Shown: positions 13,525 to 56,098 of the stretch, piece by piece
Numbering within the stretch: the first letter of the stretch is position 1
Layout of the letters: each line of letters opens with the position of its first letter
Origin: Octopus vulgaris
Taxonomy: Eukaryota
DNA: 64,000 nt
Reading direction: 5' to 3'
Assembly (NCBI GenBank): GCA_951406725.2
Contig: OX597830.1
Location: forward strand, 75,950,001-76,014,000
The notes under the pieces: generated by a model
What the model was told of the DNA's origin: nothing
The model's database searches: none
The model's input: the letters and a program-made list of their open reading frames with translations, nothing else
Made by a program: the position numbers and the translations under genes

Positions 13525-13617
13525 AAAATTAGCTGAAGATTACTCAGCATCTTAAATCTGCTGTAATATTTACAGCTTTTAATAAAATGTTGTAGTATGA
13601 AACAATTGTACTAAATT
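13525..13617 (+). ncRNA. Type I hammerhead ribozyme motif (PLE-associated) with extended stem II
   Basis: stem I aattag/ctaaatt; CTGAAGA 13533-13539; stem II tactcagcat/atgttgtagta; GAAAC 13599-13603; palindromic stem III ACAATTGT; GTA triplet 13608-13610. Confidence 0.7.
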
Positions 13618-13686
13618 ACCGGATTCATTCTTGTTGCTTATTTTTTTATTATAATCACCCCATATATTTTTATGGGTAACAGCATA

Positions 13687-13749
<63 letters not shown>

Positions 13750-13850
13750 GATGCACCAGAATTTTGTATGGTGTTACCCATAAAAATATGCGGGGTGATT
13801 ATAATAAAAAAATAAGCAACAAGAATGGATCCGGTAATTTAGTACAATTG

Positions 13851-15382: not shown

Positions 15383-15556
15383 TCGATCTGTTCAAATAAA
15401 TGCAGTGCTCTAGCATGGCCGCAGTCAAACGACTGAAACAAATAAGAGAATAAAAGAATATAGGAATCTGATTTCCTATGTTCTTTTATTCTCTTATTTG
15501 TTTCAGTCGTTTGACTGCGGCCATGCTAGAGCACTGCATTTAGTTGAACAAATCGA
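15383..15556. repeat. Fold-back duplication of a SINE A tail (~84 bp arms, 6 nt loop)
   Basis: near-perfect palindrome centred on ataggaa-tctgat-ttcctat (loop 15467-15472). Confidence 0.9.
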
Positions 15557-16611: not shown

Positions 16612-16690
16612 TTTTCATTTCATTTCATCTAGTTTCAGCTCACGAGCTGTGGCCATGCTGGGGCAATGCCTTTCAAAACAATGTGTTACT
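16612..16690 (-). mobile_element. LINE-derived 3' tail fused to the 5S copy
   Basis: minus strand: ggcattgccccagcatggccacagctcgtgagctgaaactaga-(tgaaa)n; matches the LINE 3' UTR at 40919-40960. Confidence 0.85.
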
Positions 16691-16789
16691 CTTACTGCAC
16701 CTAGGTTTCCCAAGCGGTCACCCATCTAAGTACTGACTAGGCTCGACGTTGCTTAACTTCGGTGATCGGACGAGAACCGGTGCTCTCAA
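16691..16789 (-). pseudogene. 5S rRNA-derived sequence lacking roughly the first 18 nt (retrocopy or SINE3 head)
   Basis: TTGAGAGCACCGGTTCTCGTCCGATCACCGAAGTTAAGCAACGTCGAGCCTAGTCAGTACTTAGATGGGTGACCGCTTGGGAAACCTAGGTGCAGTAAG is colinear with metazoan 5S; internal box A and box C are retained. Confidence 0.93.
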
Positions 16790-16798
16790 AATATATAT

Positions 16799-16832
<34 letters not shown>

Positions 16833-39279: not shown

Positions 39280-40118
39280 ATTGGTTTCAAATTTTGACAT
39301 AATGTCAGCAGGATTGGGAGTGGGGCTAAATCGATTAAATCAGTGTTCGACAAGTAGTTATTTTATCGGGTCCGAAAGTTGAAAAGTAAAGTCGACCTCT
39401 GAGGAATTTGAACTCAGAACAAGAAGACTGACGAAATACCGCTCCACATTTTACCCGATTTGCTAAAGATTCCACAGTGCGCCTTTCCTTGTTGGTTAAA
39501 TAATAGTTTCACATTTTTGCATATGATTAGCAGGTTTGGAGGAAGGCCTAAGTCGATTAAATCGACCCTAGTCTTCAGCCTGTACTTATTTATCGACCCC
39601 AAAAGGATGAAAGACAAAGTCGACCTCGGTAGAATTTGAACTCAGAACTTAAAGATGAACGAAATACCTATTTCTTTACTACTCGCATGGGGCTAAACAC
39701 AGAGAGGACAAACAAGGACAGACAAACAGATTAAGTTCATTATATCGACTCCAGTGTGTAACTGGTACTTTATTTATCGACCCCGAAAGGATGAAAGGCA
39801 AAGTCGACCTCGGTGGAATTTGAACTCAGAACGTAACGGCAGACGAAATACCGCTAAGCATTTCGCCCGGCGTGCTAACGTTTCTGCCAGCTCACCGACT
39901 TCGATCATAATAATATTCGTTTCAAATTTTGGCACAAGGCCAGCATGTTTGGGGGAGGAGCTACATTAATTAAATCGACCCTGCTGCTCAAAGGGGACTT
40001 ATTTTATAAACCCCGACACAATGAAAGGCAAAATGACCTCGATGGAATTTGGACTCAGAACGTAAAAACGGACGAAATACGGCTAAGCATTTTGTCCGAC
40101 GGTTCCGCCAGCTCATCG
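39280..40118 (-). mobile_element. Cluster of about four SINE B units
   Basis: repeated aaagtcgacctc..gaatttgaactcagaac; junction gaaatacctatttc at 39661. Confidence 0.85.
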
Positions 40119-40146
40119 CTTTCCCCTTATAAGTACTAGACTTACA

Positions 40147-40532
40147 GTGGAGGCGCAATGGCCCAGTGGTTAGGGCAGCGGACTCGCGGTCGTAGGATCG
40201 CGGTTTCGATTCCCAGACCGGGCGTTGTGAGTGTTTATTGAGCGAAAACACCTAAAGCTCCATGAGGCTCGGGCAGGGATGGTGGTGATCCCTGCTGTAC
40301 TCTTTCGCCACAACTTTCTCTCACTCTTACTTCCTGTTTCTGTTGTACCTGTATTACAAAGGGCCGGCCTTGTCACTCTCTGTGTCACGCTGAATATCCC
40401 CGAGAACTACGTTAAGGGTGCACGTGTCTGTGGAATGCTCAGCCACTTACACGTTAATTTCACGAGCAGGCTGTTCCGTTGATCGGATCAACCGGAACCC
40501 TCGTCGTCGTAACCGACGGAGTGCTTCCATCC
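40147..40532 (+). mobile_element. SINE family C (tRNA-derived, ~385 bp), 12-bp TSD
   Basis: tggcccagtgg A box, gtttcgattccc B box; TSD actagacttaca at 40135-40146 and 40533-40544. Confidence 0.93.
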
Positions 40533-40740
40533 ACTAGACTTACAAAGAATATGTCCCGCAGTCAAATGACGAACAAATAAAATGATAAATGAATAATAGA
40601 TGATACAGACAATGCCGTGAGTGTGGAACATATATTCAGCAAAATAACCATTTTTTTAAAAAATATATGTTCATATATATATTTCGTATTGTTAATGTAA
40701 ATGAGGTTGCTTCTAAAATATAATAAACTTTTCATGTACA

Positions 40741-40965
40741 TTGCACAAAGTAGATGTAGGTTTTTTTTAATCAAAGCTGGACCTCTTCCTGTCGAGAGTC
40801 CAAAATGAACCTACATCACGGAAAGAGGTGCAAATGAGGGTAGCTATATCAAACTTCATTCTTCCCTAAGTGCGACATATTAGAGGAGGCTCTTAGTAAT
40901 AACAGTGTAGCACAAAACGGCGGTGCATCAGCATGGCCGCAGCTCTGAGCTGAAACTAGAAAAAT
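40741..40965 (+). pseudogene. 3' end of a CR1-group LINE; candidate donor of the SINE A/5S/U6 tail
   Basis: LHKVDVGFF*SKLDLFLSRVQNEPTSRKEVQMRVAISNFILP*VRHIRGGS* fits the FK.KLD.FL..VPDEP..SNS motif; UTR ggcggtgcatcagcatggccgcagctctgagctgaaactaga. Confidence 0.8.
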
Positions 40966-55859: not shown

Positions 55860-55930
55860 TATTAGAGACAAAACCACTATTTTGCAAAACAAACAAGGAA
55901 AGACTTAATCAATACATGTATGTATGTATA

Positions 55931-55991
55931 TTTATTTATTACTTTTGTATGTTTCAGCCTTTAGGTTGTGGCCATGCTAGGGCACCGCCAG
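55931..55991 (-). mobile_element. LINE-derived 3' tail fused to the U6 copy
   Basis: minus strand: ctggcggtgccctagcatggccacaacctaaaggctgaaacatacaaaag-(taaa)n. Confidence 0.85.
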
Positions 55992-56094
55992 AAAAAAAAA
56001 ATATGGAACGTTTCACGAATTTGCGTGTCATCCGTGCGCAGGTGCCATGCTAATCATCTCCGTATCGTTCCAATTTTTATGTACTACCGAAGCA

Positions 56095-56098
<4 letters not shown>
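55992..56098 (-). pseudogene. U6: U6 snRNA retrocopy, near full length
   Basis: GTATTGCTTCGGTAGTACATAAAAATTGGAACGATACGGAGATGATTAGCATGGCACCTGCGCACGGATGACACGCAAATTCGTGAAACGTTCCATA-T10; ACAGAGA box mutated to ACGGAGA; upstream is (TG)n with no PSE/TATA promoter. Confidence 0.95.

Follow-up and report, generated by a model that had tools for sequence, protein, structure and literature searches.

The octopus element at positions 16612-16789 (minus strand) consists of a 5S rRNA without its first 18 nucleotides, followed by 20 nt of linker, a retroposon tail with two hairpins and (TGAAA)3. The same modules recur in the same order in contigs of related organisms, with varied junctions and with a second partner, and a U6 RNA is joined to a tail of the same class elsewhere in the window, by which we mean the whole stretch of 64,000 nucleotides that was analysed. 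As best explanation we favour, with a probability of roughly 55%, repeated template switches from a LINE tail to the U-run of a 5S precursor. Papers are cited by PMC number, in each case for the passages that bear on the point.

The 5S-derived head and its linker

The window consists of AT-rich animal DNA that is dense in microsatellites and has no long real reading frames. The element is embedded in a TA microsatellite and carries TA/TG microsatellite on both flanks. Its parts and its two relatives in the window are as follows:

16691-16789 (minus), 5S rRNA-derived head, about nt 19-117 (Rfam RF00001, 67.6 bits; loose ends of full-length copies)
16745-16758 (minus), putative box A of a type 1 Pol III promoter (sequence and Rfam alignment)
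16737-16742 (minus), putative intermediate element, holding the 5' helix arm CCTAG (Rfam alignment)
16711-16728 (minus), putative box C (Rfam alignment)
16700-16704 (minus), CTAGG, 3' helix arm (Rfam structure line)
16679-16690 (minus), last 5S letters and short 3' trailer ending CACATT (contig comparison; 2 of 11 letters unlike the majority)
16675-16678 (minus), T4 within TT-G-TTTT at the junction, probably copied from the Pol III terminator or U-run (sequence; related contigs)
16651-16670 (minus), tail hairpin 1, common to window SINE tails, U6 chimera and LINE-like end (alignment, folding)
16636-16649 (minus), tail hairpin 2, of the type of 40919-40960 and not of the SINE type (alignment, folding)
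16612-16627 (minus), terminal repeat (TGAAA)3 plus A (sequence)
40741-40962 (plus), LINE-like 3' end with short broken frame, UTR and the closest tail (window match; X12 loose ends)
55930-56098 (minus), U6 copy, T10, CT and two-hairpin tail of the same class (Rfam U6, 88.8 bits)

Five runs (X1, X4, X12, X15 and X21) of the 24 listed were compared with the element at 80% likeness. The first contig comparison covers the element without its repeat-rich left part, and the comparison with the sister organisms rests on alignment tables and 30-letter consensuses.

An earlier note on this DNA had described a 5'-truncated 5S with intact box A and box C, a paired CCTAG/CTAGG helix and an end in (TGAAA)n, and on all of these points our data agree with it. 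The Rfam 5S_rRNA model matched 16692-16804 (minus strand) with 67.6 bits (gathering score 38, E 4.4e-12) and its positions 1-18 land on the flanking microsatellite. The loose ends of full-length 5S contigs carry 18 more conserved letters 5' of 16789, and thus this copy starts at 5S nt 19. The regions that we take to be box A, the intermediate element and box C are all ungapped in the Rfam alignment, and the head is predicted to carry an internal type 1 Pol III promoter. CCTAG (16737-16741) is paired with CTAGG (16700-16704) in the Rfam structure. For a SINE3 head SINEBase asks for at least 60% identity to 5S rRNA over at least 60 nt (PMC3531059), and with 99 nt and 67.6 bits the head falls within this definition. 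Folding of the head alone was no better than that of shuffles (z -0.38). A functional 5S gene was ruled out, with 18 nt missing and no 5S flank. A search for a target-site duplication around the element gave a longest exact match of 1 nt, both flanks being TA microsatellite. By itself, the locus is probably inert.

Compared with the 5S-like contigs of organisms A and B, the head (16692-16789) shows three majority differences. The letters at 16696, 16735 and 16747 are in the minority in these two organisms (0.7-26% of depth) and in the majority in organism D (90-99%). This letter type may go back to a 5S gene variant that is older or minor, or else mark a lineage of SINEs. In X15, the run of organism D, the 5S type equals that of our copy at the three sites, the 5S-like summed depth reaches about 477,000 versus 6-13 for the listed contigs, many different flanks are seen and there is almost no tail signal. 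Organism D may have a large 5S-derived repeat family of its own.

The length and the place of the 20-nt linker of the earlier note (16671-16690, minus strand) were confirmed. Its first one to three letters appear to be the diverged 3' end of the 5S itself. It carries T4 (16675-16678), which is the element's only run of four or more T. At two of the 11 letters after the 5S match the contig majority differs from our copy, and at the first of them the majority has a C that would close 5S helix I. In the related contigs the T-run at the junction is unbroken (T4-5). The consensus of the loose ends reads trailer ending CACATT, T4-5 and tail start (47 X21 contigs, agreement 0.46), with a weaker version in 15 X12 contigs, and in X15 a trailer of the same length precedes T6 (84 contigs, agreement 0.48). 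Because the trailer recurs with the tail and with a SINE head, and one of equal length precedes T6 in organism D, we read the linker as the end of a 5S precursor, most likely its 3' end, trailer and terminator, which was joined to more than one partner. An origin from a LINE 3' UTR, which the linker resembles at 40893-40906, was ruled out: related contigs carry the trailer with different partners, and two of the letters behind the resemblance differ from the majority in these contigs. The warning that the TTTT could stop Pol III was apt, and the T-run directly precedes the tail.

Tail hairpins, the LINE-like partner and a U6 chimera

For the core tail motif we counted 18 occurrences in the window versus 0.11 expected by chance, and looser scans yielded 21 to 27. 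One of the 21 tails listed is joined to a 5S, and most window tails are those of an abundant SINE whose head, judged by eye, is tRNA-like; ARAGORN found no tRNA. All window tail types share hairpin 1, and hairpin 2 differs by type. The best match to the tail of the 5S copy was 40916-40960 (84.8% over 46 nt, E 3e-8), which is the only window tail that its hairpin 2 matches; 14 other window matches cover hairpin 1 only. Thus, of the proposal that the tail is closest to a LINE at 40919-40960, the closeness of the tail holds, whereas the LINE identity was not confirmed: a homologue search, HMMER (1.84 billion proteins) and Pfam gave no protein identity for 40741-40960, and an ESM Atlas search was uninformative (best score 0.78). 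The short broken frame at 40741-40962 presumably resembles the end of a CR1-type reverse transcriptase. Sequence like the UTR of this locus lies upstream of the tail in 8 X12 contigs and is therefore a repeat.

When five tails were aligned, 92% of the cells paired and three of the six hairpin 2 pairs changed on both sides, figures that are supportive only, as the tail structure was derived from the same five sequences. The tail of the 5S copy alone folded with a z of -1.6 versus shuffles. Hairpin 2 differs among SINE, LINE-like and U6-joined tails, with both-sided changes in three pairs, and this suggests several LINE families with one recognition fold. At 16665, loose ends in 168 X21 and 55 X12 contigs show low-agreement AT-rich sequence just upstream of hairpin 1, hinting at many insertions cut near the hairpin 1 base. 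Two near-identical SINE tails (15398-15460, plus; 15480-15541, minus) form an inverted pair facing each other, about 130 nt apart. A second SINE-like element, at 40150-40535 (plus strand), has a head resembling a tRNA but another kind of 3' end, and it adjoins three tandem copies of another short repeat (39530-40125).

About 39 kb from the 5S element we found a full-length U6 (55997-56098, 88.8 bits in Rfam) with only (GT)n upstream. The tail joined to it carries a third type of hairpin 2, and 2 nt separate the junction from the start of hairpin 1, which places it near the junctions of the 5S copies. A search for target-site duplications around this chimera gave 3 nt. Transcription of U6 depends on an upstream promoter and, since such a promoter is absent here, the chimera is a retrocopy and not a self-transcribing SINE. 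As this promoterless copy joins just before hairpin 1 after its T10, the junction point needs no SINE master.

Recurrence of the junction in related contigs

At least 18 pieces reach from hairpin 1 into the 5S (at least 11 in X21, 4 in X12, 2 in X4 and 1 in X1), and they come from two related organisms. Among the pieces listed in the first comparison, 3 of 8 in X21, 2 of 8 in X4, 1 of 8 in X1 and 0 of 8 in X15 bridged hairpin 1 and 5S. In the second comparison all 8 pieces listed for X21 and 4 of the 8 listed for X12 did so. Under a strict rule (at least 31 letters on both sides of the mid-linker), 14 of the 18 listed bridging pieces were retained. These pieces are 80-93% like the copy at 16612-16789. 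Relative to this copy, the net lengths of the 18 pieces were -5 (one), -4 (one), -3 (six), -2 (five), -1 (two), 0 (two) and +1 (one). One of the X4 pieces and the X1 piece seem to represent a single locus, and their linker is clearly different from the common one. Among the listed runs none is given as RNA; X1 is guessed to be RNA and its bridging contig makes no statement on expression.

The earlier note had left the choice between a cephalopod SINE3 family and a one-off chimera, and had considered that only one copy might exist. With the architecture recurring at many loci in two related organisms, the one-off chimera falls, and a SINE3 family is possible without being the best fit. A single accident, or an assembly chimera, unique to 16612-16789 is compatible with the finding that at most half of the element's 18 sampled words occur in any listed run, which is about what the 5S part alone would give; because of this count, the exact locus was not found in the listed runs. 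In addition, the bridging pieces listed are all at most 93% like its junction. However, the same architecture is present in contigs of four runs and two organisms, and we regard such an accident as highly improbable.

In X21 at least 11 distinct contigs bridge the junction. Those listed all have a low, single-locus-like depth (38-67), and there is no collapsed high-depth junction among them. The summed depth in this run is about 2.5 million at the tail versus about 10,000 at the mid-linker, which is a ratio of about 250. Dividing the summed mid-linker depth by the depth of the pieces gives about 25 to 200, a quotient that is no copy number.

The 3' part of the 5S also continues into the head of the abundant tRNA-SINE in X1 (two contigs) and X4 (one contig). 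One loose-end string of this join matches six places in the window, and six X12 contigs carry a blurred version of it. There are thus at least three kinds of junction (common linker, X1/X4 linker, SINE head) and therefore several origins. The 5S 3' parts that run into the tRNA-SINE head in X1, X4 and X12 are possible 5S+SINE dimers. A dimer of this kind is the arrangement that has been proposed for the origin of the 5S-headed DeuSINEs. DNA pattern scans for the 5S-to-tail pattern gave no match in metagenome contigs, and those for the tail pattern gave none in metagenome, viral and prokaryote genome contigs.

Origin of the fusions and comparison with known systems

The heads and tails of SINEs are by standard proposal attributed to template switching onto small RNAs, which is mostly inferred after the fact. 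For the octopus fusions we propose the following course. The LINE protein would bind the two-hairpin tail, prime at a nick in a TA microsatellite and leave (TGAAA)n. Its reverse transcriptase would then copy about 60 nt, stall at the base of hairpin 1 and jump to a Pol III transcript, in this case a pre-5S with an 11-nt trailer, at its free oligo-U end, and copying would break off before the first 18 nt of the 5S. The same DNA product would result if the two RNAs were ligated first and copied afterwards. The event likely happened many times and would have left tens to perhaps a couple of hundred dispersed copies. The modules and their order are observed, as are their recurrence, the differences among junctions, the second partner and the U6 chimera; hairpin binding, priming at the TA tract, the switch at the hairpin 1 base and the early stop are inferred.

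The layout of 16612-16789 is consistent with this course. A cellular small RNA is fused in sense orientation 5' of a LINE or SINE 3' piece, the T-run stands before the tail, and upstream there is microsatellite and no gene flank. Tail-bearing elements without small RNA greatly outnumber the chimeras, as is seen from the X21 depth and from the single joined tail among 21 in the window. According to Kojima 2015 (PMC4494074), independent chimeras require many more tail-sharing elements than chimeras, and the excess of tail over junction depth in X21 therefore counts for independent chimeras. In human extracts T4 and T5 are efficient terminators, but T5 can be leaky in vivo (PMC3141230). Since Pol III would terminate at the T-run and not reach the tail, most of the 5S chimeras would be dead ends.

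Against recurrent chimeras speaks that the net length is -2 or -3 in 11 of the 18 listed pieces and that the loose-end consensus shows trailer, T-run and tail at one offset, as would be expected of a family. The lack of a target-site duplication in our search also counts against them. The spread of net lengths could have arisen from homopolymer slippage, and some of the indels may lie outside the junction. Moreover, the minority 5S letters at 16696, 16735 and 16747 could be SINE-diagnostic. These points lead to a low-copy cephalopod SINE3, a reading that we consider possible and hold tentatively to be the second choice. Here, an ancient chimera with a type 1 promoter would be transcribed by Pol III leaking through an A-flanked T4-5, a LINE would copy the RNA, and 16612-16789 would be a daughter copy that is truncated at its 5' end and has a G within its T-run. 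The promoter region is intact, the same modules occur at many loci in two organisms, the junction has a modal length, the CACATT trailer is uniform and the head is of a minority 5S type. In X21 the depth with the 16696 letter is about 15,700 versus about 15,100 through the trailer, which also fits a SINE3, but alignment clipping could cause this. About 24,000 5S-derived loci of the giant squid have been called likely SINEs (PMC6962438), and a scaphopod SINE carries a 5S head (PMC5804259). Real mollusc SINEs have internal T4-5 runs followed by C (PMC4758252), whereas in our elements A or G follows the T-run. On the other hand, there is no body beyond the 5S trailer, and the tail follows the T-run immediately. 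Further arguments against a SINE3 are the seven net lengths, a linker that differs in at least one case, the occurrence of the trailer on a SINE head, the U6 parallel and the single-locus-like depth of all listed X21 bridging contigs, of which at least 11 are distinct, whereas at least 100 copies would support a SINE3. Recurrent chimeras and a low-copy SINE3 family can coexist.

Alternatively, the fusions might have formed at the DNA level in two steps, with a LINE or SINE entering preferentially at the T-run behind a genomic 5S and being shortened to its tail, so that head and tail would not stem from a single retrotransposition. T-run junctions with more than one partner would be in line with such insertions. 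However, the copy at 16612-16789 lacks the first 18 nt and the upstream flank of the 5S and lies between TA/TG microsatellites, the T-run or trailer is not repeated behind the tail, which would be expected of a target duplication, and the U6 copy is also without gene flank. We consider this scenario unlikely.

The recurrent chimeras that we favour have their nearest counterparts in the U6 chimeras of platypus and Anolis (Doucet et al. 2015, PMC4476161). In the platypus U6-L2 chimeras a small RNA truncated at its 5' end is combined with a short piece of LINE and a TGAA repeat, and the target-site duplications are short; in Anolis U6 is joined to L2, to RTE-like LINEs and to SINEs. Like platypus U6-L2 and U6-Mon-1, the octopus fusions carry a 5'-truncated Pol III RNA in sense orientation and a short 3' piece of a presumed stringent LINE or of its SINE, and they share with the platypus and Anolis chimeras the TGAA-type end, apparently the short or missing target-site duplications, and probably both LINE and SINE partners. 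Unlike in U6-L2, the octopus RNA is a 5S with trailer and terminator, whose internal promoter would in principle allow it to turn into a SINE; furthermore, the host is an invertebrate and the LINE piece is little more than two hairpins. In the 27 human 5S/LINE-1 chimeras (PMC13174262) the 5S is likewise located 5' of the LINE piece in one insertion, but it is as a rule in antisense and cut off near nt 46 or 90, whereas fusions of the octopus type are in sense and keep the 3' end and the trailer. In the SINE3 families (zebrafish SINE3-1, CoeSINE5, HaSE3, SINE-1_Pmo, scaphopod Ante), as in the octopus copy, a 5S-derived head with regions for box A, intermediate element and box C is combined with a tail of LINE type (PMC5786205, PMC5804259, PMC4824008, PMC10886601). 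Those examples whose structure is given in the passages carry a body or a longer LINE-derived part, whereas in the octopus copy only trailer and T-run separate head and tail. For the giant squid loci, which are high-copy and, like our copies, 5S-derived and from a cephalopod, the passage in PMC6962438 gives no structure, tail or mechanism. An octopus 5S-headed element was not found in the relevant passages of PMC4824008, PMC5786205, PMC10886601, PMC10294476 and PMC9068888. More generally, we found no cephalopod SINE3 structure, no octopus SINE3 and no mollusc U6 chimera in the literature searched; a catalogue entry may exist in Repbase, in Dfam or in the SINEBase supplements, the last of which may include octopus SINE tails.

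In U6/L1 chimeras made by RtcB ligation, too, a Pol III RNA is joined at its oligo-U end, and this ligation needs a 2',3'-cyclic phosphate (PMC6789731). It could account for the U6 copy at 55930-56098. A 2',3'-cyclic phosphate is not known for the 5S precursor, and template switching is therefore the likelier route in the 5S case.

Both small-RNA/LINE chimeras and SINE3 elements are already known. The former have been described mainly in vertebrates, and our data extend them to a mollusc. With many fusions of a sense 5S precursor and a LINE tail, which have a working-looking promoter and terminator, the distinction between a dead chimera and a new SINE would become testable, and we propose loss or leak of the terminator as the dividing line. 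One may go further and imagine a SINE nursery, in which one stalling LINE grafts a minimal tail onto the U-ends of Pol III RNAs and some 5S chimeras leak or lose their terminator and re-amplify as a cephalopod SINE3. We regard this extension as rather doubtful. If it were true, the G in the T-run of 16612-16789 might be the first step of terminator loss, and founders, dead ends and daughters would be readable side by side in one genome.

A further repeat of the window, at 13605-13848, is a long near-perfect inverted repeat around a (TA)n core. Its Rfam match to MIR7723 is below the gathering score and it may be a small foldback element.
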